From the NCBI RefSeq assembly GCF_004010195.1, contig NC_057718.1, positions 81,668,028 to 81,732,027 of the forward strand: a stretch of DNA of 64,000 nt, read 5' to 3'. The position numbers and the translations under genes were made by a program. This DNA is from Chiloscyllium plagiosum. Its lineage: Eukaryota. The stretch's first letter is position 1. The number at the start of each line of letters is the position of its first letter. The notes beneath the pieces are model-generated. The model worked only from the letters and a program-made list of their open reading frames with translations, was not told the origin of the DNA and ran no database searches. Below are positions 1 to 53,960 of the stretch, piece by piece.

Positions 1-150
1 CCACCCCCACCCTCCTCTAGCTTATCTCTCCCCGCTTCAGGCTCTCTGCCTTTATTCCTGATGAAGGGCTTTTGCCCGAAACGTCGATTTTGCCTGTCCT
101 CGGATGCTGCCTGAATTGCTGTGCTCTTCCAGCACCACTGATCCAGAATC
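1..150 (+). mobile_element. 3' terminal (pLTR) fragment of Penelope-like element, family A
   Basis: Same terminus (ctgatgaagggc..gcccgaaacgtcgatt..ggatgctgcctga..ttccagca) is attached to the PLE RT element at 45542-47123. Confidence 0.85.
56..87 (+). ncRNA. Minimal hammerhead ribozyme motif (PLE family A)
   Basis: CUGAUGA-A-GGGC-UUUU-GCCC-GAAA-CGUC; intact core, 4-bp stem II, palindromic ACGU helix III, only 2-bp stem I. Confidence 0.7.
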
Positions 151-1460
151 TAATTAGGGATAGTCAACATGGCTTTGTGTGTGGGGAAATCATGTCTCAC
201 AAACTTGATTGAGTTTTTTGAGCAAGTAACAAAGAGGATTGATGAGGGCAGAGTGGTAGATGTGATCAATATGGATTTCAGTAAGGCGTTCGACAAGGTT
301 CCCCATAGGAGATTGATTAGCAAGGTTAGATCTCACGGAATACAGGGAGAACTAGCCAGTTGGATACAGAACTGGCTGAAAGGTAGAAGACAGAGGTTGG
401 TGGTGGAGGGTAGTTTTTCTGACTGGAGGCCTGTGACTAGTGGAGTGCCACAAGGATCGGTGCTGGGTCCTCTAATTTTTGTCATTTACACAAATGATTT
501 GGATGTGAGCATAAGAGGTACAGTTAGCAAGTTTGCAGATGGCACCAAAATTGGAAGTGTAGTGGATAGTGAAGAGGGTTACCTCAGATTACAACAGGAT
601 CTTGACCAGATGGGCCAATGGACTGAGAAGTGGCAAATGGTGTTTAATTCAGATAAATGCGAGGTGCTGCATTTTGGGAAAGCAAATCTTAAAAGGACAT
701 ATACACTTAATGATAAGGTCCTAGGGAGTGTTGCTGAACAAAGAGACCTTGGAGTGCAGGTTCATAGCTCCTTGAAAGTGGAGTCGCAGGTAGATAAGAT
801 AGTGAAGAAGGCGTTTGGTATGCTTTCCTTTATTGGTCAGAGTATTGAGTATAGGAGTTGGGAGGTCATGTTGCAGCTGTACAGGACATTGGTTAGGACA
901 CTGTTGAAATATTGCATGCAATTCTGGTCCCCTTCCTATCTGAAAGATATTGTGAAACTTGAAAGGGTTCAGAAAAGATTTACAAGGATGTTGCCAGGGT
1001 TGGAGGATTTGAGCTATAGGGAGAGGCTGAACAGGCTGGGGCTGCTTTCCCTGGAGCGTTGGAGGCTGAGGGGTGACCTTATAGAGGTTTACAAAATTAT
1101 GAGGGGCATGGATAGGATAAATAGACAAAGTCTTTTCCCTGGGGTCGGGGAGTCCAGAACTAGAGGGCATAGGTTTAGGGTGAGAGGAGAAAGATATAAA
1201 AGAGACGTAAAGGGCAACTTTTTCACGGAAAGGGTGGTGTGAGTATGGAATGAGCTGCCAGATGAAGTGGTGGAGGCTGGTACAATTACAACATTTAAAA
1301 GGCATCAGGATGGGTATATGCATAGGAGGGGTTTAGAGGGATATGGGCCGTGTGCTGGCAGGTGGGACTAGATTGGGTTGGGATATCTGGTTGGCATGGA
1401 TGGGTTGGACCGAAGGGTCTGTTTCCATGCTGTACATCTCTATGACTCTATGGCTCTATA
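151..1460 (+). mobile_element. CR1-clade LINE (HER1-like), 5'-truncated; ORF2 RT C-terminal half and 3' UTR
   Basis: ORF 169-1242 has DFSKAFDKVPH, GVPQGSVLGP, KLERVQKRFTRM, RLRGDLIEVYKIM; catalytic FADD mutated to FADG; ends in (ctctatga)n tail. Confidence 0.95.
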
Positions 1461-1804
1461 AGTTTGTTGGAGGGATGGTTGTGTGAACCTGCGTGAGATT
1501 TTGTGCCGTATCTTATCAAACTCATCTCATTAATTACCTACTCTGTCTCTGTGGCATCCCCTACACCCAGGTCTGGCCCCACATTACTGGAACAACTCAC
1601 TGCTGCTGGGATGTCCTCGGGTTGACCAGCATTCCTCACAAAACCATTATCTTTAAAACCCTGTTTGGTACCCAGACAAAGACTGTCAGTCTGGTGCTGC
1701 CCCACATTGTTCCTGACATGTGCCCCGGACATTACAGACAGGGGGACATGAGCCTCCTACTGTGCTGTCAGATATCTGTAGGTCAAGCTGAATGGGGAGG
1801 GGCT

Positions 1805-2065
1805 TATAAGTTCATAAGTTCATAAGTTATAGGAGCAGAATTAAGCTATTCAGCCCATCAAGTCTGCTCTGCCATTTGATCATGGCTGATAGGCTCTTCA
1901 ACCCCATTTTCCTGCTTTCTCTCCATCCCACCACCAATTAAAACCCTCTGTCCAACTCCTCCTTGAATTTACTCACTATCCCAGAAGCCACTGCACTTTG
2001 AGGTAGTAAATTCCACAGATTCACAATCTTTTGGGAGAAGTAGTTTCTCCTCAACTCTGTTTTAC
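1805..2065 (-). mobile_element. Older CR1-type 3' end fragment
   Basis: (ataagttc)n tail then ggagcagaattaagctattcagcccatcaagtctgctctgccatt; related copy at 6385-6530. Confidence 0.65.
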
Positions 2066-2531
2066 ACTGGTTGGACTCGCTCATCCCCAGGATCAGCGTG
2101 GGTGCCAAAATACCAGACCATGCCAGCCTGATGTGATCTTACTACCCAAGTCAGTGAAGTTTCAGCAGTTTAGAGCAATGCACAGCAATGTAAGAAGATG
2201 AAAATCCTTCTCCACTCTGCCACTGCCAGTAAAGTGCCACTGCCTTTTTTCCGATATCTCACACTCTATCTCTGCCACTGTACACACCTCCCACCAAGGC
2301 TAATGCTGTATCACTATCACTGTTGTAGTGATGGTAGTGAGGTCAGCCCTCATTGGGGCTGTTAACCTGGTCCAATCTGAGAGCCCTAACTGACATATAA
2401 AAAGATGAGTATTGGAGATTCTGACACTCAGGATGCTGATTCTTATGACACAATGCCAGAATAAAGGACTCTCCATACATAAATAAAAGGTGATATGGTG
2501 ATGAGATAGGTGTCTTTGTGGCGTATTTCAG

Positions 2532-2541
2532 TGGTGACGAG
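2532..2541 (+). promoter_or_regulatory. Primer binding site, tRNA-Ser(GCU)-type
   Basis: TGGTGACGAG 1 nt after LTR CA; one CpG-type change from TGGCGACGAG. Confidence 0.65.
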
Positions 2542-3840: not shown

Positions 3841-4001
3841 GAAAGTGAGGTCTGCAGATGCTGGAGATCAGAGCTGAAAATGTGTTGCTGGAAAAGCGCA
3901 GCAGGTCAGGCAGCATCCAGGGAACAGGAGAATCGACGTTTCGGGCATAAGCCCTTCCTGAAGAAGGGCTTATGCCCGAAACGTCGATTCTCCTGTTCCC
4001 T
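3841..4001. mobile_element. Miniature PLE family A insertion forming a hairpin, 14-bp TSD
   Basis: TSD ggactattagagga at 3827-3840 and 4002-4015; perfect 42-bp inverted repeat 3916-3957/3963-4004; hammerhead core 3958-3985. Confidence 0.9.
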
Positions 4002-4611
4002 GGACTATTAGAGGAACCTTGCGTGTTGACCAGGAAGCAATTCCATGATAATACAAGTGTCATTTGCCCTACAGCCAAAGTAGAGGAAGAAATCTGAAGG
4101 CTAGAAAGTGAAGGAATTACCAAACTAGTCCAAATTGCAGACTGGGCAGCATCGTTCATATTGATGAACTGGGTTGCCTTTCTGGGGATTTTAAACAAAT
4201 GGCAAACTTCTTTTCACAGCTGGATAAGTATCTAATCCCTCAGATAGAGGATTTATATGCAAAATTAGCAGGGAAAGCTGGACATGAGCTTTCTTACTTG
4301 TAACTGCATTTAGACAATTTTCCCAGAAGTATGCTACAAATAGTACACAAAGAGTTTGTATCAATATACAAGACTGCCAGCTGGGGTATTGTTCAATTTT
4401 GTAGTGGAAGATGGAGAACATTTTGCAAGGTATACCTCAGGTTGCATTTGTCTAAATGGCATTCTAATAACAGGGAAATCTGTTGAGGAACACTTAGAGA
4501 ACTTGAATATATTTCTTAGATGGTTTTCCAAGGTGGCTGAATAAGCATGAGGACCAGGTGAAAGATATAAACGCACAAATGAGGCCAGAGTAAAATATGC
4601 CCTGCTCCTTG

Positions 4612-4815
4612 TCACTGAAATGGAAATAAAAGGTGCTGGATATACTCAGCCATTTTGCAGCGTCAGTGGAGAGAGAAAGTGGTTAAGGTTTAGAATCCAA
4701 AATGACACTTCTCTGTTTTGTAGAAAGAACACCCTGGAATCAAACCATTAGCTCTGTTCTTCTCTCTCCATAGATGCTGCCTCACCTGCTGAATATCTCT
4801 AGCACTTTCTGGTTG
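4612..4815. mobile_element. Old PLE terminal remnant, two inverted halves
   Basis: gctggatatactcagc..cagcgtcagtggagagagaa opposite tctctccatagatgctgcc..gctgaatatctctagc. Confidence 0.6.
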
Positions 4816-7271: not shown

Positions 7272-7418
7272 GATGTTGAAAATTGCAGTGCAGGAAAAGC
7301 ACAGTAGATCAGGCAGCATCTGAGGAGCAGGAGAATTGACATTTCAGGCATAAGCCCTTCATCAGGAATGCACACTTTTTGACTCTGATCTCCAGCATCT
7401 GCAGTCCTCACTTTCACT
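7272..7418. mobile_element. Miniature PLE family A remnant (inverted pLTR part plus 3' tail)
   Basis: Minus-strand hammerhead ~7338-7365 joined to plus-strand tail gatctccagcatctgcagtcctcactttc. Confidence 0.8.
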
Positions 7419-8520: not shown

Positions 8521-8521
8521 G

Positions 8522-8645
8522 AGCTGAAGAAGTGTCATACCAGACTGTGAACATTAACTCTGTTTCTCTGTCCATAGATGCTGCCAGACCTGCTGAGTTT
8601 CTTCAGCATTCCCTGTGTTTGTTTCAGAATTCCAGCACCCGCAGT
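8522..8645 (+). mobile_element. Old PLE terminus (family D) with decayed hammerhead
   Basis: ctgaagaagtgtc..gac..gaacattaactc..atagatgctgccagacctgctgag. Confidence 0.65.
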
Positions 8646-9599: not shown

Positions 9600-9705
9600 G
9601 TTCTGAAGAAGGGTCACTGGACCCGAAACATTAATTCTGCTTTCTCTCCACAGATGCTGCTGGGCCTGCTGGATTTTTTTCAGCATTTTCTGCGTTTTAA
9701 TTCAG
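9600..9705 (+). mobile_element. Old PLE terminus (family D) with hammerhead motif
   Basis: CUGAAGA-A-GGGUC-ACUG-GACCC-GAAA-CAUU at 9603-9632. Confidence 0.75.
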
Positions 9706-9719
9706 AGAGAAAGGTAGAT

Positions 9720-11745: not shown

Positions 11746-11749
11746 ACAT

Positions 11750-12989: not shown

Positions 12990-13400
12990 GCTGGAGCAAA
13001 TTACTGCAGATACTGGACTCTGTACTGAAAACAAAAATGCTGGAGATCACAGTGGGTCAGGCAGCATCCACGGAGTGAGAGCAAGCTAACATTTTGAATC
13101 TAGATACCTCTTCAACAGAGTGAAATGTGGAGGGGGCAGCATCTATGCAATAGTTGGCCAAGGTGAAAGGGGTGTTTTGGGAGGGGGTGTTCTGGGGGTG
13201 AAAAGGTGCTAATAATGCAGAATAAGTGATCAGAATGTGCGAATGACAGTTCAATGATGTGTCTAACTGTGATACTGGAAAGAACACACAATCCACTGGA
13301 GTGTGGGGTGGGGAGAGAGGACATGGTGACAAGGGAATGCAACAAGTAAAGCTAAAAGAAAGGGAAGAAATGGGAGTGAGTTCACAATCTGAAGGTGTTA
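12990..13400 (-). mobile_element. PLE 3' region fragment (family D-like)
   Basis: Homologous to 49510-49890 and reverse complement of 51400-51785. Confidence 0.7.
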
Positions 13401-13512: not shown

Positions 13513-15890
13513 AAAGTAGACAAGCAGGAGGCTAGAAGAACACAGTAAGCCAGGCAGCATCAAGAGATGGAGAAGTCACCATTTTGGATCTAACCCTTCC
13601 TCAAGAATGGAGGTGGGGGTAGGGGAAGCTGCAAATAAAGGGGAGGGTTTTAGGTGGGGAGAGGGGCGGAGTGACGAGTTAGGGGGTATGATCTGGTTGG
13701 CTGATGGGAGAATGAATCCTGTTGGTAGCTGGAAGGAGGGGTTGGTTAGTGGAATGAAAAGGAGGAGGCAGGGCTGGAAAGGGAGGTGGGGCATGGGAAG
13801 GAAGGTTATTTGAAATTGGAGAACTCAATGTTGAGTACTCCGGGCTATAGGCTGCCCAGGTGGACGATAAGGTGTTGTTCCTCCAATTTGTGGTCTGATT
13901 CACTGCGGCAATGTAGGAAACCGAGGTTGGATGTGTCAGAGGGGGAGTGGGAAGGGGAATTGAAATGGGCGTTGGCTGGGATATCAGGCTGGCCCTTACA
14001 GGCCAAGCTGAAACGCTTAGCAAAATGATCCCTTTGAAAGTAAGGACTGCAGATGCTGGTGATCAGAATCAAATAATGTGATCCTGGAAAAGCACAGCAG
14101 GTCAGGCAGCATCTGAGGAACAGGAGAATCAAAGTTTCGGGCATTACCCTTCATCAGGAATAAGGTTTGTGGGTCAGGGCTGCGAGATAAATGGGAGAGG
14201 GGTGGAGCTCAGGGGAAGGTAGGTGGGAATGTGATAGGTAGATGAAGGTGCGGGTGGAAGTGATAGGTGGGGGGGGGGGAGGGTGGAATGGATTGAGGGG
14301 GAGAGAAATGAAGAAACCGGTGAAGTCCACATTGATCCTGTATGGATCCTGCATCCTTGGGATCCTTCAAACTTGGGACACTACTACCACACAGGATCAT
14401 TTCCCCTCCCCCAACCTTATCCTAGTCCCAAGCCTCCAACTTGGCACCGCCCCCTTGATCAGTCCTACCTGTCCATCTTCCTACTTTCCCACCCATCCGC
14501 TCCACCCTCCCCTCCAACCTATCATTCCACCTGCAGCTTCATCTACCGATCACATTCCCATCTACCTTCCCCCCCAGCCCCAACCCCCTCCCATTTATCT
14601 CTCAGCCCTTCCTGGCCTGCAAGCCTCATTCTGATGAAAGGTTCCCTTAGTTTACATTTGATCTCACCTGAAGTAGAGAAGACCACATCGGGAGCACCGG
14701 ATACAGTAAATTAGGTTAGAGGAGAGGCAAGTGAACCTCTGTTTCACCAGGAAGGACTGTTTGGGCCCCTGGATGGAAGTGAGGGGGTTGGTGTGCCAGG
14801 AAGTTTTGTGTCTTTTCTGGTTGCAGGGGAACGTACCGGGGGTTCGGAGGGGTTGGTGGGGAGGGTAGCATGAACCAAGGATTGTCGAAGGGAACGGTTC
14901 TTGCGGAAGACAGAGAGGGGTGGGGAGGGGAAGATGTTCTTGGTGGTGGGATCCAGTTGGAGTTAGCGGAAGTGTTTGAGGGTGATATGTTGAATGCGGA
15001 GACTGGTGGGATGGCAAGTGGGGACAAGAGGGACTCTGTCTTTATTATGTTTGGAGGGTGGGAGTTTTACAGCAGTGGAGCAGGAAATGGAGGAGGTGTG
15101 GTGGAGGCCTGTCTGAATGACAGAGGGGGGAAGCATGTTGCAAAATCTGCCGTCACACTGACCCACCCGCCCCCCCCCCCCCCCCCCCATCTCATCCAGG
15201 GCCCCAAATATTCCTTCCAGGGTGAGACAAAGATTCGCTTGCCTCTCCTCCAACCTAATTTATTGAGTCTGGTGTTCCCGATGTGGTCCTCTCTACATTA
15301 CTGAGACCAACCATAAACTAGGGGCATGGTTTGTTGACTATCTCAGCAGGGCCCATAAATGTCTACCTGACCTCCCAGTCACCGCCCATTTCAATTCCCC
15401 TTCCCACTCCCTCTACGACGTGTCCACCCTTGACGTCCTACATTGTCACAGTGAATCAGACTACAAGTGGGAGGAACAACACCTTATCCTCTGCCTAAGC
15501 AGCCCATATCCCGGAAGACTCAACATTAAGTTCTCCAATTTCAAATAATCTTTCCACCCATCCCCCGATTCCCTCTCCAGCCCTTCTATTCCACTGACTG
15601 ACCTTTCCTTCCAACTACCAATCAGATTCATTCCTCCCATCAGCCAACCAGGTCGTACTCACCACCTATGTTCACCTATCCCTACCTCACCACTCTGCCC
15701 TCTCCCCTCCTAAAACTCTCCCCCACCTCCCCTTTGTTTGCAGCTCCCCCTACCCCCACCTCCATTCCTGAAGAATGGTTATACCTGAAATATTGACCTC
15801 CATCTCCTGATGCTGCCTGGCTTGCCGTGTTCTTCTAGCCTTCTGCTTGTCTACTTGGGATTCCAGCATCTCATACAGCCTCATCTGCAG
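13513..15890. mobile_element. Composite of nested, inverted Neptune-type PLE fragments with GIY-YIG remnants
   Basis: Minus PGTFPCN..FTCLSSNLIYCIRCSRCGLLY (14664-15017); KLEEQHLI.HLGSL; outer arms 13513-14030(-) and 15150-15890(+) are reverse complements; inner family A arms 14035-14640. Confidence 0.85.
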
Positions 15891-17060: not shown

Positions 17061-17756
17061 TGTAATTCATCCTGTCCGAAAAAGCAGCTCCTCCTTACTA
17101 ATGCCAGTAAAAGCCAAGTGTTGTGGATGTTGGAAATCTGAAATAAAGATAAAAATTGCTAAAGTAGGTCTGGCGTTATCTGTGGAGAGTGAAACAGGTT
17201 TAACATTTTGAATCCAATATGATTCTTCTTGACTAAAGGGTGCTGGGAAGTGATAGTTGTTATTGCCGTTGGCAATGCAGGAAAAGAAATAAGTAAAACC
17301 GTTGATGAGAATGCTCAGAGTAAAAGACAAAGTGAATACTAATAATGGTAGTAAAGGAGCAGTATTGATGAAAAATAGATGTTAATGGTAGTGTAAACTG
17401 TAGATGATGTATCAGCATTGCTGACAACAAATCCATGCAAGACACGTGGGGGTGTTGGTAGTGTGAAAGTGCAATAAAAGTGGAAGGACACTGCATATAT
17501 ACAAAGTGGTCACCCAGTCTCTGTTTGTTCTCTCCAGTGTAAAGGAGACCTCATTGTGAGAAGTGAATAAAATAGTATAGATTGAATAAAGTGCAAGTAA
17601 GTCATTGCTTCATACGGAACATATGTTTAAGGCCTTGGACAGTGAAGGGGACGACGTAAATGAGCAAATGTTACACATCTAGAACTGTTTGGAAACAATG
17701 ATAAGATTCCCCTTGTTTTACCCCATCACTCTCTGCATTCAAAGGGTTATTCTGTA

Positions 17757-18645: not shown

Positions 18646-19381
18646 GGTGATTTTAGTCACCACCAGCAGGATGTGAAACCTAAATGCATCTCTTGTCAGC
18701 ATTCTGCAGGGATTGCTCCCTCCATGACACCCTGCTACTCCTCCATCACTCCTAACATTTCCAAATGGCATCTTCCCATGCAGTCACGAAATCTGAAACA
18801 TTTGCTCTTCTACTTCCTCCCTCTTCACTATCCAAGGCCCCAAGCAAACCTTTCAGATGAAGAGGCAATTTAGTTGTACTTCCTGCAATCCAGGGGACAG
18901 CATTCACTGTTCACAATGAAGCTGACTCAAAGTATTGGCCAGACCAAGTACAGATTGGGCAATTGCTTTGTGTAACATGTCCTCTTCATCCATAAGAATA
19001 ACTTCGAATTTCCAGCTGTTTGCCATTTCGTACACACTGTCTTGCGAATATTTCTTGCCAATGAAGGAGCACTTTACAGACTCAACAGTGAGTTCAACAA
19101 TTTCAGTGCATGTGCATTGTCTTCCATTTTGATTACAGTCTCTTCCCCAGCCCCATTACCCAGTGTCCCCCATTACAGTCAACAGAGCTGACCTATTTTC
19201 TGTGATTTACACCATTTATTGCCACCTATTCTTCATCTACATTGTTCCTCTACTTAGCACGCCTTTTGTCTTTTTTTCTGTGGAAATCCTCATCATCTAT
19301 TATACTTGTTCCTCCTCTATCTTCGCCAACAGCATAAAATCCATTATTTTGTAGCCTGCTTCAATTCGAAAAAAGGGTCAT

Positions 19382-19676
19382 TTGATTAGATTAGATTAGA
19401 TTAGATTACAGTGTGGAAACAGGCCCTTCGGCCCAACAAGTCCACACCAACCCGCTGAAGCGCAACCCACCCATACCCCTACAGTTACCCCTTACCTAAC
19501 ACTACGGGCAATTTAGCATGGCCAATTCACCTGACCTGCACATTTTTGGACTGTGGGAGGAAACCGGAGCACCCGGAGGAAACCCACGCAGACACGGGGA
19601 GAACGTGCAAACTCCACACAGTCAGTCGCCTGAGGCAGGAATTGAACCTGGGTCTCAGACGCTGTGAGACCGTGGC
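19382..19676 (-). mobile_element. HE1-type V-SINE, head slightly truncated
   Basis: (attag)n tail, V-domain; flanking gtcat direct repeat 19377-19381/19677-19681. Confidence 0.93.
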
Positions 19677-19799
19677 GTCATATTGGACCTAAAACATTAA
19701 ATCTGTTTCTCGGTCCACAGATGCTGTCCAACCTGTTGAATTTCTCCAACATTTTTTGTGTATTTTTGCTTAACATTATCCCGTATTTCAAGCCATTCA

Positions 19800-24494: not shown

Positions 24495-26468
24495 AGACTA
24501 CATAAAGACCCAAGTCCCCACCCCACTGCTGGCCAAAGATGGAGTGACTCTTAACAAAAGTAAAGAAGTCATCAAATAATGCTGGAGAGACCTCTTTAAC
24601 AAGGGCTGAGCGTCCTTGAATTCGTCCCCCAGAATGCTATACACCATGAACTCAGTAACACCGCAGCCCTGCACGAAGTAGAGAAGGCCATCCACCTCCA
24701 TAAGAACAACAACGCTGCTGCACCTAAATGCCCTTAGCTGCCTTATCTGGAAGGAGGAGACTATCCCAGGAGAGCTCCGAGATGCTACAGTTGTGAACAT
24801 TTTCAAAAAAGGAAACTAATCCAATTTTGATAACTGCAGAGGAATCTCCGTGCTATCGACTGTTGGAAAAGTCTCCTCCAAGGTCTTCTTCAACCGTCTC
24901 CTCCGTGTGGCTGAGGAACTCCCCCCGGAGTTGCAGTCAGGCTTTCAGCCACAGAGGGGCACAACCAACATGATTTTCACCGTACGACAGCTGCAGGAGA
25001 AATGCAGAGAAAAGAACCTATCCCTATACATAGTCTTCTTTGACATTACAAAAGTCTTTTACACCATCAATTGGGGAGCATTATGGAGTGTCTTATTCTG
25101 CTTTGTTAAAAATCACACAACACCAGATTATAGTCCAACAGGTTTAATTGGAAGCACACTAGCTTTGGGAGCACTGCTCCTTCATCAGGTGATTTGGTTG
25201 CACCATGAGGTTTGTCACCATCGTTCGCCTGCTCTATGATGACATGGAAGTCATGGTAATGACAAATGGCTTCACCACCAACCCATTGGCCATTCAGACC
25301 TATGTCAAGTCGGGCAGTGTCATTGCCCCAATACTGTTCTCGATCTACCTCGCTGCAATGCTTCACCTCACCGCCGACAAGCTTCCCACTGGAGTGGAGC
25401 TAACTTACAGAACCTGTAGGAAATTATTCAACCTCCACCACCTTTAAGCCTAAACCAAACAAAACCAACCAGTGTTATGAAGCTGCAGTAAATAGACGAT
25501 GCTTGTATATGTGCAATCTCAGAGAATGTACTCCAGACCATCAATGGTCAATGAAGCATGCTCTCATATGCTTCCAACACCTTTATGGAAGCATATGAGA
25601 GCATGGGTCTCACCCTGAACATCTGCAAGACGAAGGTCCTTCATCAACCTGGCCTGGTATTGTGGAGCAAACCGCCAATCATCAAGGTCCACAAGGAGGC
25701 CTTGGAGAACAATGGCCATTTTCAATACTTCTGGAGTGTCCTGTTGACCAAAGCAGCTATTGATGAAGGGATCCAGCATCACATCCAGTGTGCTAGGACC
25801 ACCTTTCGCCGCCTGAGGAAAAGGGTAGAGAGAACAATAACATCAGATCCAACATCAAGAACATGGTTTACAGAGCTTCCTATATAGCTCTGAGACATGG
25901 ACTGTCTACATCAGACATCTCAAGGTGCTGGAGCAGTACCACCAACACTACCTGCGCAACATCCTGCAAATCTGCTAGGAAGACAGATTCACCAACACCT
26001 TGACCAGGCCAACATCTCCAGCACTGAGACTTTGACTAACCTTGATTGGCTCCGATAGGCTGGGCTCATTGTCCACATGACCGACATGAGACTCCCCAAG
26101 CAGGTTCTACTCCCAGCTCTGAAGTGGCAGGCGAGCCCTAGGTGGACAGAAGAAATGTTTCAGGGATGCCCTCAAGGCCTCAATGGTGGTGCCGCATTCC
26201 CACAGACCTCTGGGAATCCCTGGCCCAAAGTGGGGGAGGAGCATCCAGGAAGGCATCAAATACCTCGAAATTTGCCCTTGGAAAAAAGCAGAAGCCAGAC
26301 AAAAACAGTGAAAGAAGTGCACTGCCCCACCCATGGCTTCCCGTGACCACCTTCTGCCCAAGTGTAATAGAGTCTGTGGTAGCTGCATCAGTCTGTACAG
26401 CTACCTATGCACCCACGCTGAGAGTGGAAGAGAGTCATCCTCATTTGCGAGGGACTGCCAATGATGTT
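24495..26468 (+). mobile_element. RTE-clade (BovB-like) LINE, decayed, 5'-truncated
   Basis: RGIS.LSTVGKV, LP.LQSGF.PQRGTTNMIFTVRQLQEKCRE, APILFSIYL, GLTLNI.KTKVL; ends gagggactgccaatgatg. Confidence 0.9.
25106..25191 (-). mobile_element. 86-bp PLE family C terminus inserted in the RTE element
   Basis: Matches 49935-50017 and reverse complement of 44523-44600; hammerhead GAAA mutated to CAAA. Confidence 0.85.
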
Positions 26469-38580: not shown

Positions 38581-38894
38581 CTTCTAAAATCCTTCATTCT
38601 CATTGTCCATCCAAACATTACCAGGAGTTTCTAAAAGGACCTGCAGTTGAGTTGCATCACTGATAAGGGAGAGTGTCAGAGCTGTACAAAGGGAAATCAT
38701 CTTGGAGGGTTCATCCACTGAGACATTATGGATAGACACACAATTAGGAGGAGTGCAATCACTTTGATGGGGTAGTACTACAAGCCTCCCAATAGCGAGG
38801 AGGAGTTAGAGGAACAATAGATGGACGGATTATGGAAAAATGTAAAAGCAACAGTGATATTGTGGTTCTGTTCACCGAGCTGGAAGTTTTTGTT

Positions 38895-38934
38895 GCAAAC
38901 GTTTCGTCCCCTGGCTAGGCGACATCATCAGTGC
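38895..38934 (-). ncRNA. Minimal hammerhead ribozyme motif (family B)
   Basis: GCA-CUGAUGA-U-GUCGCC..GGGGAC-GAAA-CGUU-UGC. Confidence 0.75.
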
Positions 38935-39449
38935 TTGGGAGCCTCCTGCGAAGCGCTTCTTTGATGTTTCCTCCGGTGTTTATAGTGGTCTGTCCCTGCC
39001 GCTTCCGGTTGTCAGTTTCAGCTGTCCGCTGTAGTGGTTGGTATATTGGGTCCAGGTCGATGTTTTTGTTGTTGGAGTTTGTGGATGAATGCCATGCCTC
39101 TAGGAATTCCCTGGCTGTTCTCTGTCTAGCTTGCCCTATGATAGTAGTGTTGTCCCAGTCAAATTCATGTTTCTTGTTGTCTGCGTGTGTGTGGCTACTA
39201 AGGATAGCTGGTCGTGTCGTTTCGTGGCTAGTTGATGTTCATGTATGCGGATTGTTAGCTGTCTTCCTGTTTGTCCTATATAGTGTTTTGTGCAGTCCTT
39301 GCATGGTATTTTGTACACTACATTAGTTTTGCTCATGTTGGGTATCGGGTCCTTGGTTCTGGTGAGTTGTTGTCTGAGCGAGGCTGTTGGTTTGTGTGGC
39401 TCGGGTGCTTGTTGTTGTGGTTCTGTTCGCCGAGTTGGAAGTTTTTGTT

Positions 39450-39489
39450 GCAAACGTTTCGTCTCCTGGCTAGGCGACATCATCAGTGC
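39450..39489 (-). ncRNA. Minimal hammerhead ribozyme motif (family B), tandem partner
   Basis: Same motif 555 nt upstream on the minus strand. Confidence 0.75.
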
Positions 39490-39963
39490 TTGGGAGCCTC
39501 CTGCGAAGCGCTTCTTTGATGTTTCCTCCGGTGTTTATAGTGGTCTGTCCCTGCCGCTTCCGGTTGTCAGTTTCAGCTGTCTGCTGTAGTGGTTGGTATA
39601 TTGGGTCCAGGTCGATGTGTTTGTTGATGGAGTTTGTGGATGAATGCCATGCCTCTAGTTGACATCAACTAGCCTCGAAACGACACGACCAGCTATCCTT
39701 AGTAGCCACACACGCAGACAACAAGCAACATGAATTCGACTGGGACAACACTACTATCATAGGGCAAGCCAGACAGAGAACAGCCAGGGAATTCCTAGAG
39801 GCATGGCATTCATCCACAAACTCCATCAACAAACACATCGACCTGGACCCAATATACCAACCACTACAGCGGACAGCTGAAACTGACAACCGGAAGCGGC
39901 AGGGACAGACGTCTATAAACACCGGAGGAAACATCAAAGAAGCGCTTCGCAGGAGGCTCCCAA

Positions 39964-40003
39964 GCACTGATGATGTCGCCTAGCCAGGGGACGAAACGTT
40001 TGC
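39964..40003 (+). ncRNA. Minimal hammerhead ribozyme motif (family B)
   Basis: gcactgatgatgtcgcctagccaggggacgaaacgtttgc. Confidence 0.75.
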
Positions 40004-41361
40004 AACAAAAACTTCCAGCTCGGCGAACAGAACCACAACAACGAGCACCCGAGCTACAAATCTTCGCACAAACTTTGAGCAACAGTGATGTTGTGATGGG
40101 TGATTTTTGCTTCCCCTATATTAACTGGGATTCACTTAATGCCAGGGGCTTTAATTTGGGGGTCGGGAAAGCGGGGTGGAATTTGTTGTGTGTCCAGGAT
40201 GGTGTTTTGAAACAATATGTAAATAATCTGACCATTAAAATGTACAACTACACCAGGAATGAGCCCTGACAGGAGATTGATCTTTCGGTGAGGGAGTATT
40301 TTGGGAAATGAGACCATAAATCTGTAAAATATTAGTTACTTATGGATAATGATAAGGGTAGTCCTCAGGTGAAAGTATTAAATTGGAGGAAGGCTAATTA
40401 CCCCAATAATAGACAGGAACAGGGGAACTGGGGGCAGTTGAGGGTAAATCCACATTTAGTTAATGGGAATCGTTTAAAGAACAGTTGATTAGAGTTCAGG
40501 ATCAGCATGTCCCTATGAGGATGCAGGATAAGGATGGAAAGATTCAGGTACCTTGCATGACAAGAGAAATTAATCAAAAAGAGAAAGGAGGTTTAGGAAA
40601 CTGGAGAAAAAAGCAGTATTATAATAGTCACATCATATGATCACTTGATAAAATTATATTATTCTGAAAAAATAAAATACTTTTCTACTTGGTTGTAAAA
40701 TCATATGCACATTAGAAAGTCATAACTGGAACAATTCTTTATAACATAATGTTGTTTCAAATCTATATCTTTGAGTGTATTTTCACACATTTTATCATTA
40801 CAAATTTCAGAAATAAGAGGTCAGCAACGTTACATTTTTACCTCAGGCGATTTCCGCTGAGAGAATATTGTGATTCAACCCAAACACCATCAGAAACACA
40901 TTTATATTGACTACCTCATTTTCATTTAAGGGAAATTATTCTGGTTAGTAATACAAATCTACCTGATTAAAACCTACTGTTGGTTTAGTATCTATTATTT
41001 AATGCTCTGTGCCAAAACAAATCACAGACATTTCTTTTACAAAATAAGTCATCTCCCATTCATCTACCTGGAACATTAGATTGCTTCATTTATTTAGTTA
41101 CTTATTGTATGTCTTTACAAAGAAATGGATAGGACTTGCAGGATAGGTCCAGGCCATTCGATCCAATGCTTCCTCCCCAGGTGCTTCCTTCCACTCTATT
41201 TGCTTAATCTCACCAGATTAACATTTTTTTTACCTCCCCCTAAAATACATCAGTGCAATGCGTTTTAAGCACTCCGTGTCATAGTGAGTTCTACATTAAG
41301 CAGGCTGGTTGTTTTGCTGATTATTAACAGTGAACAGTTTGAAATGGAAGGATCTTTTTTT

Positions 41362-42442: not shown

Positions 42443-44600
42443 GTGATGTGGAGGAGCCGGCATTGGACAAAGTTAAAAATCACACATCACCAGCTCTAAA
42501 CCAGCATCCCCCACGTTGATGCATCGCTGCAACAGCCTCAGTACTCAACACCAACAACTGCCAATCTCTGAGCACCATCCTACGACTCATCCACTTCATC
42601 CTCGATCACAACGCTTTCACCTTTGACAATCAGGTCTTCATCCAGACATATGAACAGTTGTGGGGACCAAATTTGTACCCGAGTATGCCAACATATTCAT
42701 GCACATGTTCAAATGAGGCTTCTTTTCTGCACAGGACCTCCAACCAACGATACGTATCAGATATATTGATGACATTTTCTTCCTCTGGCGAGGAGTCACT
42801 GAAACACCTTCACAGTGTTATCAACGAGTTTCATCCCAATATCAGGCTTACCATGGACTACTCTTTAGTACCTGTCTCATTCTTGGACACATGCATCTTC
42901 ATTAAGGATAGGCACCTCAGCACCTCACTCAACCACAAACCCACAGATAACCTCACAATGCTACACTACTCTAGCTTCCACCCTGAGCATATTAAACAGC
43001 CATCCCCTACAGACAAGCCTTACACATACATTTCTTCTCAGATGAGAAGAAATGCGATGGACACCTGAAGGTGCTCAAGGGTGCCCTTGTAACAACAGGG
43101 TACGATGCTCAACTCCTGGATCACCCATTCCGCTGTGCCACAGCGAGGAACTGTAATGACCTCCGGGGAGACAGATTCAGAATGCGACCAATAGGGTACC
43201 CTTTGTTGTTCAGTGTTTCCTGGGAGCAGAGAAACTATGCCATGTTCTTTACGATCTGCAGCACATTATCAATGAGGGTAAGCACTTCGCCAAGACTTTC
43301 CCTACGCCTCACTTCTTGCCTTTAAACAACCACCAAACCTTAAACAGAACATTGGTTACAGCAGACTGCCCAGCCTTCGGGATGACATCAACCAAAACAT
43401 CGTACAACCTTGTCATGGCAGCCACTGCCAGACGTGTCAGAGTGTCGACATGGATACCACCATTACACGTGGGGACACCACCCATTGTGTATGTGGCAGG
43501 TGCTCATGTGATTCAGCCAATGTTGTCTATCTTTTACACTGCAGGCAAGGATGCCCTGAGGTATGATACATTGGTGAGACCAAGCAGATGTTACAACAAT
43601 GGATGAATGGACACTGCACAACAATCAGCAGACAAGGGTGTTTCCTCCAAGTCGGGGAACACTTCAGTGGTCAGGGACCTTCGGCCTCAAATCGTTGCCG
43701 ACTGTCCTCCAAGACAGACTTCGGGACAGACAACAACACAAAGTAGCTGAGAAGAGACTGATAGCCAAGTTCGGTGCCCATGAGGATGGCTCAACCGGAA
43801 TCTTGGGTTCATGTCACACTACAGGTGACCCCACTACACCACACAATCTCTCACTCACACGCAAGCACACACACACACACACTCACGCAGACCATCTCTC
43901 ATTCACACGCTCTCTGTCATATACACACACATGCACCCCACACTCACACCCATGCAATACTCTCTCACATGCTTATACTCCATCACACTCACACACACAC
44001 TTTACCAAGTTTGTACGCACACAAACACACCCTCTCTCACTTGCATTCACAATCACACGCACACACTCACTCTCTCTCACATGCATGTGCACATTTATAA
44101 GTCTATGGGGTGAATTTGTATTTACAGATTCATATTTTCAGATAGATTCTATTTTGCTCAAAAAATGCACAATCTGCACGCAGTCAATGCAGGCAGTCAA
44201 TACATGTAGTATTTGGTAAATTCCACTTTGGAAATAGAATCAATCTGACTCAAGATTGGGATACAGACAGACTCTAATCTCACATATTTAATGCATTGTC
44301 TGAGCTGAGATATCACTTTTTAAAATAAAACCTTAAGTTATCCCAATAATGTGACTTAAAAGAAGTTCTGGAATTTACATATGAATGAACCAAAACCTGC
44401 AACCCATTCTAAAAGATGAAAGATTTAACAATAATCTAGGTTTGTTCAATATATAATTTCAGTTGCATGACACTGTAAACCTTTGCTTTAAACTCTGTAT
44501 CTTATGGTCCTGCTCCACAGCAACCTGGTGAAGGAGCAGTGCTCTGAAAGCTAGTGCTTCCAAATAAACCTGTTGGACTATAATCTGGTGATTTCTAACT
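42443..44600 (+). mobile_element. Neptune-type PLE (family C), decayed RT, Cys linker, GIY-YIG, CA-rich 3' region and terminus
   Basis: RYIDD-like cagatatattgatgac, FHPNIRLTM..SFLD..KPTD, PCHGSHCQTC, NVVY..C..YIGET; hammerhead variant 44525-44553; inverted tail 42443-42493. Confidence 0.88.
43845..44092. repeat. Imperfect (CA)n/(CT)n low-complexity tract
   Basis: Direct reading. Confidence 0.9.
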
Positions 44601-45094
44601 CTTGAAACACTTACCAAAATGCTGTTACAAAAGCAAACAAGAATCTTTCCAGCACAATGGCCTGTGTAGAATGCTTTTGCAGCTGTTATTGCTGGATTCA
44701 TCTCTTCCCTTCTCTGACCTCTCTCCTTGCACCCCCTGTAAACTTGACTTAGTCTGACACCCTGATGATGTATCACGTCTCATGTAGTACCATTCACTCA
44801 TTAGCCAGTCCAAAGAAATCTCAATTTTAAACTTCTCATCCTTATTTCCACATCGATTCCTGACCCCACTCCTCCTCACCAATCCAGCTCAACATCTTCC
44901 CTGCATTCCTTGAATTCTAGCCGTTTGCACATCCTCAATCTTCATCACTTCACCATTAGCCGCCTTACGTTCAGCAGCTTGGGCCTACGCTGTGGCATTT
45001 TCTATGTCAATGCCAGCACCTATATCACTCCGTCTTCAAAATGCTCCTGAAAACCTGCCTGTTTGATCATACTTTTGATCATCATTTTCTCCTT

Positions 45095-45541: not shown

Positions 45542-47123
45542 TGAAAATGTGTTGCTGGAAAAGCACAGCAGGTCAGGCAGCATCCAAGGAACAGGAGAAT
45601 CGACGTTTCGGGCATGAGCCCTTCTTCAGGAATGAGGAAAGTGTGTCCAGCAGGCTAAGATAAAAGGTAGGGAGGAGGGACTTGGGGGAGGGGCGTTGGA
45701 AATGTGATACGTGGAAGGAGGTCAAGGTGAGGGTGATAGGCNNNNNNNNNNNNNNNNNNNNNNNNNNNNNNNNNNNNNNNNNNNNNNNNNNNNNNNNNNN
45801 NNNNNNNNNNNNNNNNNNNNNNNNNNNNNNNNNNNNNNNNNNNNNNNNNNNNNNNNNNNNNNNNNNNNNNNNNNNNNNNNNNNNNNNNNNNNNNNNNNNN
45901 NNNNNNNNNNNNNNNNNNNNNNNNNNNNNNNNNNNNNNNNNNNNNNNNNNNNNNNNNNNNNNNNNNNNNNNNNNNNNNNNNNNNNNNNNNNNNNNNNNNN
46001 NNNNNNNNNNNNNNNNNNNNNNNNNNNNNNNNNNNNNNNNNNNNNNNNNNNNNNNNNNNNNNNNNNNNNNNNNNNNNNNNNNNNNNNNNNNNNNNNNNNN
46101 NNNNNNNNNNNNNNNNNNNNNNNNNNNNNNNNNNNNNNNNNNNNNNNNNNNNNNNNNNNNNNNNNNNNNNNNNNNNNNNNNNNNNNNNNNNNNNNNNNNN
46201 NNNNNNNNNNNNNNNNNNNNNNNNNNNNNNNNNNNNNNNNNNNTGAGTTGGTTGGTCCGGGTGTCCCAGAAGTGTTCTCTGAAACATTCCGCAAGTAGGT
46301 GGCCTGTCTCCCCAATATAGAGGAGACATTGGAGACATTGCGGTCCTTGAAGAAGGAGGCCATCTGTGTTGTGCGTTTTTGGAACTGGTCCTCCTGGGAG
46401 CAGGTGCGGCGGAGTCGAAGTAATTGGGAGAATGGGATGGCGTTTTTACATGGGGCAGGATGGGAGGAGGTGTAGTCCAGGTAGCTGTGGGAGTCGGTCG
46501 GTTTGTAGTAGATGTCTGTGTTGATTCGGTCGCCTGAGATAGAAATAGAAAGGTTGAGGAAGGGGAGGGAGGAATCTGAGACTGTCCAGGTGAATTTGAG
46601 GTCTGGGTGGAAGGTGTTGGTGAAGTGGATGAACTGTTCAACTTCCTCGTGGGAGCACGAGGCGGCGCCGATACAGTCATCGATGTAGCGGAGGAAAAGG
46701 TGGGGGGTGGGGCCAGTGTAGTTGCGAAAGATGGACTGATCCACATATCTTACGAAGAGGCAGGCATAGCTGGGGTCCATGGCTACTCCTTTGGTTTGGA
46801 GGATGTGGGAGGATTGGAAAGAGAAGTTGTTCAGGGTGAGGACCAGTTCAGTCAGTCGAAGGAGGGTGTCAGTGGAAGGGTACTGGTTGGTACGGCGGGA
46901 AAGGAAGAAGCGGAGGGCTTTGAGTCCTTCGTGATGGGGGATGGAGGTGTACAGGGACTGGATGTCCATGGTGAAGATAAGGCTTTGGGGACCGGGGAAG
47001 TGAAAATCATGGAGGAGGTGGAGGGCATGGGTGGTGTCCCGAACGTAGGTGGGAAGTTCTTGGACTAAGGGGGACAGGACCGTGTTGAGGTATGCAGAGA
47101 TGAGTTCAGTGGGGCACTTTCTC
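45542..47123 (-). mobile_element. Young Neptune-type PLE (family A) with RT region; spans a 502-N gap
   Basis: MDIQSLYTSIPH, KGVAM..PSYACLF, LRYIDD, YYKPTDSHSYLDY; 17-bp TSD cttcaagaggacattgc 45525-45541/47124-47140; intact hammerhead ~45602-45629 minus; internal deletions. Confidence 0.93.
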
Positions 47124-47224
47124 CTTCAAGAGGACATTGCAATGAATTCTGTGCAGAAAGCCAGCATTCTGTGAAAATGGCAACATTTTAACATTTGGGC
47201 GTACACAGTTCTAATGATTTAGAC

Positions 47225-47735: not shown

Positions 47736-47744
47736 AATTTGATT

Positions 47745-49217: not shown

Positions 49218-49934
49218 TTGGGTTGCTATCTGAAGCGGACAAGGTTGCAAGAAGGTGGGAGCTGCATTAGGATAGAGTCAACACAGACTCTATCCCCTGT
49301 CCCCCTGTGCAGGAGAATTTGATGATGCCGTAATTGTATCCATCCTCATCACATCTTTCCCAAATTGGTATAAAAACTTGTTTGGTAACACTGCTGCTTG
49401 GGATGTTTAATACCATATAATGGCACTATATAAATGCAAGTTTGTTGATTAATGTAATTTTATCTGTCAATACATTGAATAGGGAGCGAGATAGAAGTGT
49501 GAGGGTACTGAAAATAACAAATGGTGGAGATCACAGCGCATCAGACAGCATCCATAGGGAGTAAGCAGGCTAATGTTTTGAGTCTAGATGAGTCTTCATC
49601 AGAACAGAAGTAAAATGTGGAAGTGCAGCATTTGTGCTATAGTTGGGGTGGGGGTGGGAGTGGTATGTGTAGAGTGCTAGTGGAGGAAAGGTATTGACAG
49701 TTCAGATTAAATGATTGGAATGTAAGAATGGCAGAACAATGGTGTGTGTAACTGCCAGGTGTGAAAGTGAAGACAGTCCCATTGGGGTGGGAGAGGAGGG
49801 GAGAGAGGATATAGTAACAGAGAATGGACCAAGTAAAGCTAAAAGAAAAGAAAGAAATGGGAGTTGGTTCACAATTTAAATGTGTTGAACTCCATAGTGA
49901 GTCCAGAAAGCTGTACAGTGCCCATTCTGAAGAT

Positions 49935-50197
49935 AAAACTCACACAACACCAGGTTATAGTTCAACGGGTTTAATTGGAACCACTAGCTTTCAGAGCACT
50001 GCTCCTTCATCAGGTGGTTGTGGAGGACACAATCGTGAGACACAGAACTTATCACAAAAGTTTACAATGTTATGTAACTGAAATTATACATTGAAAATTA
50101 CCATAATTGTTTGTTCAGTCTCTCATCTTTCAGAATGACCATGTTAGTTTCACTTCTTTCATATGTAAATCATAAAACTTTTTTAAAAAGTTACATT
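49935..50197 (-). mobile_element. PLE family C terminal fragment
   Basis: Reverse complement of 44350-44600. Confidence 0.85.
49981..50017 (-). ncRNA. Minimal hammerhead ribozyme motif (family C)
   Basis: CCAC-CUGAUGA-A-GGAGC-AGU-GCUCU-GAAA-GCUA-GUGG; 4-bp stem I, palindromic AGCU. Confidence 0.78.
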
Positions 50198-50289
50198 CCT
50201 GAGGAGGTCATTACAGTTCCTTGCTGTGGCTTTTCAAAAATAAAACCAAGGGGTCCATTTTGGTGGTGAGGCAGAAATTGAGACCTTGT

Positions 50290-51105
50290 CAGTTTATCCT
50301 ATCCATGCCCATCATAATTTTATAAACCTTTATAAGGTCACCCCTCAGCCTCCGATGCTCCAGGGAAAACAGCCCCAGCCTGTTCATCCTCTCCCTATAG
50401 TTCAAATCCTCCAACCCTGGCAACATCCTTGTAAATCTTTTCTGAACCCTTTCAAGTTTTACAACATCCTTCTGATAGGAAGGAGACCAGAAGTGCAGGC
50501 AATATTCCAAAAGTGACCTAATCAAAGTCCTGTACAGCCACAACATGACCTCCCAACTCCTATACTCAAGGCTCTGACCAATAAAGGAAAGTGTATCAAA
50601 CACCATCTTCACTATCCTATCTACCTGAGACTCTACTTTCAAGGAACTATGAACCTGCACTCCAAGGTCTCTTTGTTCAGCAAGCTTCCTAGGACCTTAC
50701 CATTAAGTGTATGAGTCCTGCTTTGATTTGCTTTTCCAAAGTGCAGCACATCACATTTATCTAAATTAAACTCCATCTGCCACTCTTCAGCCCATTGGCC
50801 CATCTGGTCAATATCCCATTATACTGTCAGGTAACCTCCTTCGCTGTCCACTACACCTCCAATTTTGGTGTCATCTGCAAACTTACTAACTTTACTTCTT
50901 GTGCTCGCATCCAAATCATTTATGTAAATGACAAAAAGTAGAGGGCCCAGCACCGTTCCTTGTGACACTCCACTGGTCACAGGCTTCCAGTCTGAAAAGG
51001 AACCCTCCACCACCACCCTCTGTCTTCTACCTTTGAGCCAGTCCTGTATCCAAATGGCTAGTTCTCTCTGTATTCCATGAGCTCTAACCTTGTTAACCAG
51101 TCTCC
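50290..51105 (-). mobile_element. CR1 RT fragment
   Basis: [40 protein letters not shown]. Confidence 0.93.
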
Positions 51106-52133
51106 CTGTATTTGTTGCACCCAATGTTGCCTACTCTACATTGGAGAAACCAAACACAGACTGGGTGACTGCTTTGCGGAACACCTCTGGTCTGTGTGGA
51201 AGCAGAATCTCGACCTTCCCATAGCCAGTCATTTTAGCAGAGTATCCTGCTCGTATGCCCCACACGTCTGTCCTTGGCATGCTGCAGTGTTCCAGTGAAT
51301 CACAGCACAAACTGGAGAAACAAATGCCTATCTGCAGACTAGGCATTTTACAGCTTTCTGGACTCAATATGGAGTTCAACACCTTCAAATTGTGAACCAA
51401 CTCCCATTTCTTAGTTTTCTTCTATCCTTACTTGTTTCATTCTCTGTCATCATGTCCCCTCTCCCCTCTTCCCCCACTCCAGTAGAAATGTCTTATCTTG
51501 CAACCTGGGCAGTTAGATATACCATTGTTCTGCCATTCTCACATTCCAATCACTTAATCTGAACTATCTACATCTTTTCTTCATCAGCATTCCTAACGCC
51601 ACCACCCCCACCCCCACCACTATAGCATAAATGCTGTCCCCTCCATGTTCACTTCAGTTCTGATGAAGAGTCATCTGAAGTCGAAACATTAGCTTGCTCT
51701 CTCTTCATGTATGCTTTCTGAGCTGCTGTAATCTCCAGCATTTGTTGTTTTCAGTACAGATTCCAGCATCTACAGTAATTAGCTCCTTGAAGTGTGATGG
51801 TTGAGATAGAATGTACCATCCTTCACAGCTGATATGATGCAGGAAGTATTCAAATTATGCAGATTGATAGATTGGAGCAGAATTCAGTTATTGAACAGCA
51901 AATAGATTGAGGGAGGACTGCAGCTTCAAGCCATCTAATTTTTAAAAAGGGTCACGTTTGAATTGTTTTGTATCTTTTCACTGAAAACAATTAATGCTAA
52001 CGATATGAAGACAACATACACTGGGGTGAAGGAGAGTCTCTGCTTGTCAGTAATATTGTACATAAATGTATTACAAAACAGTGCTTAATATAAACTGTAA
52101 TCATTTGTGGAAGGAAGTATCCTTCTGCATATG

Positions 52134-52298
52134 AGGAGCAGGAAAATCGACGTTTCGGGCAAAAGCCCTTCATCAGGGTTTTTGCCTGAAAATATCGATT
52201 TTCCTGCTCCTCGGATGCTGCCTGACCTGCTGTACTTTTCCAGCACCACTCTAATCTAGTCTCTGATCTCTAGCATCTGCATTCCTCACTTTCACCTC
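52134..52298. mobile_element. Miniature PLE family A hairpin insertion
   Basis: TSD cctt(c/t)tgcatatg 52121-52133/52299-52311; inverted arms; intact minus hammerhead ~52150-52176. Confidence 0.85.
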
Positions 52299-52349
52299 CC
52301 TTTTGCATATGTTTTATGTTGAAGGATTGAACAGTTATTCGTTAGTTGG

Positions 52350-52660
52350 TATAATGATTGTAATGAAGTCAGCCAGCTGAATGTCATAGAATATGAGATC
52401 CTTGATTGGGATCATCAATCTGGTCCAATCAGGGAGCTCTGGCTGACGGATAAAAAGGGTGAGTGTTAGGGGTACTACTACTCTGGCATTTCACTCTGAA
52501 TAGGCAGTACTAAAGTCAAGGAATGTTCTTGTGCAAACATAGAATCATTTGGTGAAGGACATCAGTCTCTATGGAGTTATTTCAGTATGACAGGAGTAAA
52601 GCACAATCCTGAACAAACTTGCTTGCAACAGTCTTCTTTGAGTTGAGATAAGCATTTCTT
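52350..52660 (+). mobile_element. LTR and leader of the same Gypsy family as 2324-4556
   Basis: Shares ctggtccaatc, tatttcagt, aaacttgct..aacagtc.tctttgagttg.gataagcatttctt. Confidence 0.8.
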
Positions 52661-52931
52661 ATATACTGCCTTTGTTCTTCACCATGAAGTACATATTCAG
52701 TTCCTCAATCAATTTTTTATTTTGCCATTGCTACTAGGCCAGCCTTATTTTCCAGCAATTCAAGATCCACTCTTGCCTCTCTTTTACTTTTTATATATCT
52801 ACAAAAATCTTCTTTTGTATTAATAGCAGGCTTACTTCATCTTTCAGCTTCTCCACCCTTATTGCCTTTTTGGTTATCCTCTGCTGGCTGTTAAAGGCAT
52901 ACAACTTATTTGGCTTCACAATAATCTTCAC

Positions 52932-53960
52932 CACTTTAGGGTGTAGGTTTGCTCGCTGAGCTGTAGGTTTGATATCAGACGTTTCATTACCTGGATAGGT
53001 AACATCATCAGTGGTGACCTCCAAGTGAAGCGAAGCTGTTGTTCCTGCTTTCTATTTATATGTTTGTCCTGGATGGGGTTCCTGGGGTTTGTGGTGATGT
53101 CATTTCCTGTTCGTTTTCTGAGGGGTTGATAGATGGTATCTCGATCTATGTGTTTGTTTATGGCATTGTGGTTGGAGTGCCAGGCCTCTAGGTATTCTCT
53201 AGCATGTCTTTGCTTAGCCTGTCTTCTCTTCAGTCAGAGAGCTGTACAGCAAGGAAACAGACCCTTCGGTCCAATTTGGCCATGCTGACCACATATCCTA
53301 GTCCCATTTGCCAGCACTTGGCTCATATCCCTCTGAAGGAGAAAGTGAGGACTTCAGATGCTGGAGATCAGAGCTTAAAAATGTGTTGCTGGAAAAGCNN
53401 NNNNNNNNNNNNNNNNNNNNNNNNNNNNNNNNNNNNNNNNNNNNNNNNNNNNNNNNNNNNNNNNNNNNNNNNNNNNNNNNNNNNNNNNNNNNNNNNNNNN
53501 NNNNNNNNNNNNNNNNNNNNNNNNNNTGGGGTTTGTGGTGATGTCATTTCCTGTTCGTTTTCTGAGGGGTTGATAGATGGTATCTAGATCTATGTTTATG
53601 GCATTGTGGTTGTGGGGACAACACATCTATCCTGGGACAGGCTAAGCAAAGACATGCCAGAGAATTCCTAGAGGCCTGGCACTCCAACCACAATGTCATA
53701 AACAAACACATAGACCTAGATACCATCTATCAACCCCTCAGAAAACGAACAGGAAATGACATCACCACAAACCCCAGGAACCCCATCCAGGACAAAGATA
53801 TAAATAGAAAGCAGGAGACAACAGCTTCGCTTCACTTGGAGGTCACCACTGATGATGTTACCTATCCAGGTAATGAAACGTCTGATATCAAACCTACAGC
53901 TCAGCGAGCAAACCTACACCCTAAACCTCAACCTGAGCTACAAACCTTCACAAACCTTGC
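52932..53960. mobile_element. Poseidon-type PLE (family B variant) with inverted arms; nested CR1 tail (~53230-53334), family A tail and 128-N gap
   Basis: TSD aatcttcac 52923-52931/53961-53969; AREFLEAWHS remnant; hammerheads at 52976-53013(-) and 53847-53884(+). Confidence 0.85.
53847..53884 (+). ncRNA. Minimal hammerhead ribozyme motif (family B variant)
   Basis: CA-CUGAUGA-U-GUUACC-UAUCCA-GGUAAU-GAAA-CGUC-UG. Confidence 0.78.

Follow-up and report, generated by a model that had tools for sequence, protein, structure and literature searches.

What are minimal hammerhead ribozyme motifs doing at intervals of a few kilobases along a shark chromosome, and do they act on the host or on the elements that brought them there? 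The question arises from a window of 64,000 nucleotides of Chiloscyllium plagiosum (contig NC_057718.1, positions 81,668,028 to 81,732,027, the whole stretch of DNA analysed here), in which an earlier note had pointed to about 20 such motifs, arranged in four families named A to D. In our assessment it is highly probable that the motifs are minimal hammerheads located at the 3' pseudo-long-terminal-repeat (pLTR) ends of Penelope-like elements (PLEs) of three lineages, likely selected in active parent elements, while the copies in the window likely decay neutrally and have no host role.

Motif positions are given in Hertel numbering, with G12 taken as the general base (PMC4209133; PMC6155905). 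The window contains 27 homologous minimal type I hammerhead positions, which include all 17 of those noted earlier, each of them real to within a few bases. The core is intact in 15 of the 27, a Watson-Crick helix III palindrome is additionally retained in 11 and a paired G10.1 in 10, which are referred to below as fully intact. For the 17 previously noted positions these values are 14 with an intact core and 10 fully intact, the latter divided among family A (4/6), B (5/5), C (1/3) and D (0/3). By our grouping, about 18 insertions account for the 27 positions and seven for the 10 fully intact motifs. The proposed density of roughly one motif per 3 kb is reached with ruins counted (one per 2.4 kb) but not with fully intact motifs only (one per 6.4 kb).

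The architecture is common to all four families. A CUGANGA/GAAA core flanking stem II, together with U16.1 and H17, is present in at least one intact copy each of A, B, C and D, and an extra nucleotide stands between A9 and G10.1 in 15/15 intact cores (A in families A, C and D, U in family B), as had been stated. The G10.1-C11.1 closing pair in these cores is G-C in 10, G-U in four and broken in one. Helix III, described earlier as a loop-less palindrome throughout, is indeed such in A and B (ACGU) and in C (AGCU), but the palindrome has been lost in every D copy, where the sites read ACAU or AUGU. Having no loop, helix III could form only between two copies, as the note had stated. Helix I is short, in a type I topology, with 1–6 contiguous pairs in fully intact copies.

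Searched loosely for both boxes of the core, the window yields 24 matches; 15 of them lie in repeat families and nine are unrelated to any family. Perfect cores with a paired stem II number 13, versus 0–4 (mean 1.2) in 20 third-order Markov simulations. One-mismatch cores, on the other hand, are at chance level (12 versus 6–17 simulated) and decayed copies were therefore collected through the homology of their flanks with nhmmer, for which a reversed-window control returned a single weak match (E 0.35) over five models. None of the decayed copies checked by eye (8524, 4718, 19672 and 52169) has an intact core. At Rfam gathering thresholds there are no hammerhead matches in the window, and no Rfam hammerhead family appears at E<=5 in 38800-54000. 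A covariance model built from nine A, B and D copies and run with filters off gave 16 matches at E<1e-4, all already catalogued; no fifth family was obtained with this model, which scored family C at an insignificant E=1.1.

Every motif sits at the 3' pLTR end of a PLE. Searching with tblastn and 133 listed relatives located remnants of reverse transcriptase (RT) or endonuclease upstream of motifs in all four families, and in each lineage a motif lies downstream of, or overlaps, an RT or GIY-YIG remnant, so that the earlier attribution of the motifs to PLE pLTRs stands; the in-window RVT_1 and GIY-YIG profile matches are below Pfam cut-offs. The RT remnant upstream of 45629 shares 83% identity with a Chiloscyllium punctatum protein, and the family B endonuclease tail shares 84-90% with Chiloscyllium and Hemiscyllium proteins.

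Families A and D possess a common 3' tail and endonuclease DNA, as do B1 and B2, while the tails of A/D, B and C are mutually unrelated. This leads to three deep lineages with subfamilies rather than the "at least four families" of the earlier note, four independent families being rejected by the A/D tail homology. Among the listed relatives, the CX2-5CxxC linker between RT and endonuclease is found in 90 of 95 A relatives with an endonuclease motif and in 0/7 B relatives; it is intact in the C element of the window and decayed in an A copy. This Zn-finger-like linker marks Neptune and Nematis (PMC8557442). Judged by these sequence features, A/D is one Neptune-type lineage, C a second Neptune-type lineage and B a Poseidon-type lineage, where "Neptune-type" draws on the linker and vertebrate distribution, with which Neptune and Nematis both fit, and "Poseidon-type" on a GIY-YIG domain without linker, whose match in the window is weak and accompanied by no B RT there.

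Most insertions are 5'-truncated and many carry an inverted second 3' end (Table 1). The five B motifs belong to two insertions only, B1 with three and B2 with two, each with a target-site duplication. An exact 7-mer search found no target-site duplication at 7365, C, 4716 or the short interspersed element (SINE), and an 8-mer at 52126 is doubtful. Element ends lie 38-96 nt beyond the cut site, N17. Reverse transcription would accordingly start 38-96 nt downstream of this site, so that even the shortest insertion would still carry a motif, which may explain the abundance and density of motifs in the window. In the fold-backs at 3841-4001, 52127-52298 and 4603-4811, the inversion junction falls within the hammerhead core or stem II, and the structure may promote template switching or microhomology joining. 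Assembly gaps at 45742-46243 and 53399-53526 sit within PLE insertions (the family A element and B2, respectively); furthermore, 53527-53615 duplicates 53083-53171, and the B2 insertion may be partly misassembled.

Table 1. Hammerhead ribozyme (HHR) motifs and carrier insertions in the window (TSD, target-site duplication; positions are those of the window)
Feature	Position	Strand	Remarks
Family A minimal HHR, fully intact (C3 to N17)	58..85	+	outside any in-window inverted repeat
Family A fold-back insertion	3841..4001		intact HHR 3958-3985(+); core-truncated inverted arm 3935-3962(-); 42-bp perfect hairpin; 14-bp TSD 3827-3840 / 4002-4015
Family D fold-back insertion, old	4603..4811		two ruined HHRs, about 4715(-) and 4718(+)
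Family A minimal HHR, core intact	7338..7365	-	closing pair and helix III CpG-decayed; inverted tail 7373-7415
Family D HHR, decayed	8524..8556	+	
Family D HHR, core intact	9603..9632	+	palindrome lost through CpG decay
Family D HHR, decayed	13088..13118	-	G12 lost
Older A-related HHR, decayed	13578..13604	-	downstream of endonuclease remnant 13809-14030(-)
Family A HHR, core intact	14131..14157	-	broken palindrome; linker and endonuclease remnant upstream at 14673-15133(-)
Older A-related HHR, core intact	15768..15794	+	closing pair broken; downstream of endonuclease remnant 15222-15545(+)
Family D HHR, ruined	17202..17233	-	downstream of endonuclease remnant 17503-17643(-)
Family D HHR, interrupted	19360..19705	+	SINE-like repeat in loop II (about 19380-19670)
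Family C HHR	25160..25188	-	G12 mutated
Family B1 Poseidon-type insertion, young	38860..40077		intact HHRs 38898-38931(-), 39453-39486(-), 39967-40000(+); GIY-YIG remnant; arms 97-98% complementary; TSD at 38847 / 40078
Family C element	42471..44607	+	HHR 44525-44553, A6 mutated; broken RT, CX4CxxC linker, GIY-YIG at 42568-43671; inverted tail about 42471-42495 (weak match)
Family A element	45549..47125	-	RT remnant 46337-47116; fully intact HHR 45602-45629
Family D HHR	49572..49602	-	G12 lost; inverted partner of 51660
Family C HHR, fully intact	49985..50013	-	AGCU palindrome; 6-bp helix I
Family D HHR, core intact	51660..51690	+	palindrome lost; downstream of endonuclease remnant 51017-51392(+)
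Family A fold-back insertion	52127..52298		intact HHR 52149-52176(-); inverted arm truncated in stem II
Family B2 Poseidon-type insertion	52935..53951		intact HHRs 52978-53011(-), 53849-53882(+); arms 97-100% complementary; 9-bp TSD at 52923 / 53961

Conservation of the motif is evident between lineages, where the core is identical and the stems covary in the presence of unrelated flanks. Across the nine A, B and D copies, 90.3% of cells are paired and two-sided changes are found in 5 of 8 pairs, a score reached by 0 of 500 shuffles and accompanied by only 17-40% pairing in slid controls; helix I shows two-sided changes at both tested pairs. The statement that stem II changes its sequence while pairing is kept is thereby confirmed for these families. 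Structural selection, which the note had inferred for the lineages, agrees with this conservation across independent lineages but does not extend to the genomic copies, which decay. CpG sites are hypermutable and G12 lies in one, which has been lost in 6/17 Neptune-type copies (35%) versus 21/77 tail CpG sites (27%). D copies at 15.2-16.2 show both CA and TG, which indicates an ancestral CG, that is, an ACGU decayed by CpG mutation, and one D motif (19360..19705) has been split in loop II by a SINE-like insertion. Since core CpGs decay as fast as tail CpGs, selection on the inserted copies was rejected and selection likely acts on the parent elements. Lower change at non-CpG core sites than in the tail is expected if subfamily parents kept the core. 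In addition, among the best 40 of 127 variants from other genomic or expressed B copies, changes in the motif are confined to N7, a stem II mismatch, loop II and N17 (U to C), a pattern that fits parental selection.

In a tandem parent transcript, the palindromes (ACGU or AGCU) of two motif copies would form helix III, with the strands of helix I exchanged between them, and the element's own tandem RNA is predicted to be cleaved after N17. Cleavage would probably be slow and aided by the element's protein, by analogy with the Anolis element. The ACGU and AGCU palindromes self-pair at about -3 to -4.5 kcal/mol, while decayed or mixed ones do not. Heterodimers between A and B were rejected as a candidate, the palindrome matching and helix I not.

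Several points weigh against selection in the parents and against dimer cleavage. No full-length tandem parent element is present in the window. The covariation set consisted of copies picked for intact cores, left out family C, which was misregistered, and ignored relatedness between copies. The contrast between non-CpG core sites (7/170 changed) and the tail (66/651, p=0.015) is inflated because copies were found partly via the core. The pattern of B variants is insignificant on its own (P=0.21) and confounded by protein constraint, the family B motif overlapping coding frames. With respect to folding, nearest-neighbour models, which omit core contacts, rate the active dimer as less favourable than the best two-strand cofold by 11-18 kcal/mol, the folding model gives helix III a pair probability of <=0.002 for intact copies, and helix I has only 1-3 contiguous pairs in A and B. 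A dimer fold so unfavoured fits the requirement for protein help reported for Anolis.

A motif kept in the parents for some non-catalytic role, as a protein-binding structure, a template-switch or initiation signal or an overlap with start and stop codons, with cleavage being incidental, is one alternative, which we regard as unlikely. Mutants of the hammerhead in the Anolis element still insert in vitro (PMC11167929) and Naiads are described as thriving without hammerheads (PMC8557442). Within the window, the junctions of two fold-backs in A and of one in D are located inside the motif, and in family B the A9, the extra U and G10.1 together read AUG (39973-39975 and 53855-53857), with the stop codon of the B1 open reading frame (ORF) located in loop II. 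Cleavage in family B would part the AUG at A9 from the downstream frame. However, a role of this kind sits poorly with the retention of every position of the catalytic core, along with the NUH triplet and the palindrome, over three unrelated lineages; A, C and D are without an AUG at A9, and the Anolis motif does cleave when protein is present (PMC11167929).

Catalytic use in the parents remains the preferred reading, and a second alternative concerns the inserted copies. These would cut host transcripts that run over two same-strand motifs, as the earlier note had envisaged, or engage abundant PLE RNA in trans, and would thereby influence the RNA output of the host, an outcome for which we see very little likelihood. 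Ten motifs are fully intact and form 21 same-strand pairs, among them the B1 pair 39486/38931, of the same strand and family and 555 nt apart; furthermore, annotated carpet-shark isoforms of MAP3K7, NT5DC1, CUEDC2 and WBP2-like contain family B sequence. Against this, seven of the ten lie in near-perfect inverted repeats which are predicted to mask them in long read-through RNA. Folds predict that 3958, 52176, 39967 and 38931 are locked in hairpins with their inverted arms, while masking of both B2 motifs is expected from the 100% complementarity of the arms containing them; the single B1 arm is able to mask just one of the two minus-strand B1 motifs. Left unmasked are one plus-strand A motif and one minus-strand motif each of A, C and B1, a single motif per family and strand. 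Helix I pairing is good between copies of one lineage but poor between lineages, D with A being the exception. Masking, together with one free motif per family and strand, leaves no compatible free same-strand pair in the window, although motifs may still be brought together in a transcript that begins within B1, or when distinct RNA molecules pair.

Family B RNA is present and mostly sense. In one single-cell poly(A) run, 567 reads fall on the B1 end, at about 9:1 sense at the motif, and read depth is smooth over the B cut site (191 in the bin preceding it, 194 in the bin that contains it and 218 in the next), with no pile-up of read starts or ends listed. Only 31 of the 567 reads have >=99% identity to B1, most stemming from other copies, and the library is poor at 5' ends, so that uncut RNA is demonstrated rather than absence of cutting. 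Cut-site reads were likewise not found for Anolis, as far as described in PMC11167929. No host exon was recognised among 133 non-repeat ORFs (>=62 aa) of the window, which gave one RT match and one sub-threshold match to a domain of unknown function, a search weak for short exons and compatible with an intron. The proposed host read-through cleavage thus lacks a compatible unmasked pair and a recognised host exon, and RNA crosses the B site intact in the reads at hand.

The isoforms in question (P0124, P0127, P0128 and P0133, isoforms of NT5DC1, MAP3K7, CUEDC2 and WBP2-like) carry family B endonuclease-tail sequence, and the two inspected end in it. PLE-derived last exons in these carpet-shark isoforms are possible, as are annotation artefacts. 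One could conceive of the lineage-specific dimer interface, palindrome plus swapped helix I, as a self-recognition code by which sense PLE RNA and protein pair in trans with single intact motifs in host transcripts, cutting or terminating shark mRNAs that end in family B in a lineage-specific way; this is a speculation to which we give very low credence.

Lastly, chance occurrence of a motif this short in DNA rich in repeats, despite the nine family-less loose matches and a one-mismatch class at chance level, is a negligible explanation given the excess of strict matches, the fixed position at PLE ends and the covariation, and flank homology rules out a chance origin of the 27 catalogued positions.

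Other repeats share the window with the PLEs. The SINE-like family with a short tandem-repeat tail, whose copy at 19380-19670 was mentioned above, has relatives at 6837-7108, 11748-12059, 41361-41664 and 48993-49217. RT fragments (RVT_1) of one family of long interspersed elements, which we take to be CR1-like, are located at 154-1455, 17756-18645, 50281-51105, 60478-61124 and elsewhere, several being nested in PLE insertions. Inverted repeats of 276 bp (28812-29087 / 29499-29774, 99% identical) around about 960 bp resemble a young non-autonomous DNA transposon, and 27095-28077 and 34065-34626 are GC-rich minisatellites, whose periods are 24 and 16 nt.

Every structural feature of the window motifs has already been described for metazoan PLE hammerheads (PMC4209133; Cervera and de la Peña 2014), the stem sequences being new instances. 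That work reports minimal hammerheads in the pLTRs of metazoan PLEs, including fish Poseidon and Neptune, in several covarying consensus families per genome, with a type I core, a nucleotide between 9 and 10.1, a G10.1-C11.1 pair and a helix III that has no loop and a palindrome at 15.2-16.2. Copies are mostly solo and truncated, with opposite-strand pairs 100-700 bp apart, and reach thousands in coelacanth and Xenopus. Dimer-dependent cleavage was weak in vitro, and dimer cleavage by such hammerheads is also summarised in PMC6765202. No shark appears in the text or supplement of PMC4209133 as far as examined, one supplement file being unsearched, and literature searches, with most subscription papers, some supplements and repeat databases outside their scope, returned no shark-specific description.

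The closest counterpart of family B is the Poseidon element PAc of Anolis carolinensis (PMC11167929; Frangieh et al. 2024), which likewise has no linker and a hammerhead that overlaps an AUG where stem II begins, the distance from AUG to cut being 26 nt versus 28 nt in family B; both elements end at short fixed distances downstream. PAc is reported to cut and extend both target strands with internal initiation, which fits window insertions having a 3' end on each side. Unlike PAc, family B is not represented in the window by a full-length ORF. Past the motif, an indel of one base puts B1 and B2 in different frames, so that use of the AUG is putative. In the features described by Craig et al. 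2021 (PMC8557442), namely 5' truncation, pLTRs in partial tandem, an inverted 5'-truncated copy and an optional tail, PLE insertions match those of the window and no difference was found. Non-LTR retrozymes (bioRxiv 10.64898/2026.07.22.740005) contain type I hammerheads related to those of PLE pLTRs, with one chondrichthyan reported; unlike them, the window has no tandem hammerhead array, and the B1 pair, with its spacing of 555 nt, represents a partial tandem within a single insertion. A retrozyme array was rejected on the grounds that 0/24 Tandem Repeats Finder rows (periods up to 500) overlap a motif and that the B1 pair flanks an endonuclease remnant.

The window extends a motif class known since 2014 with examples from a shark. 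Cutting of host transcripts, if true, would matter, the motif being very abundant in these genomes, but the local evidence points against it. The question that occupies the field, that of in vivo cleavage by such hammerheads and its purpose, does not become more testable from this window; what it does provide is a set of natural variants, with three lineages and two palindromes, usable for tests of dimer specificity.

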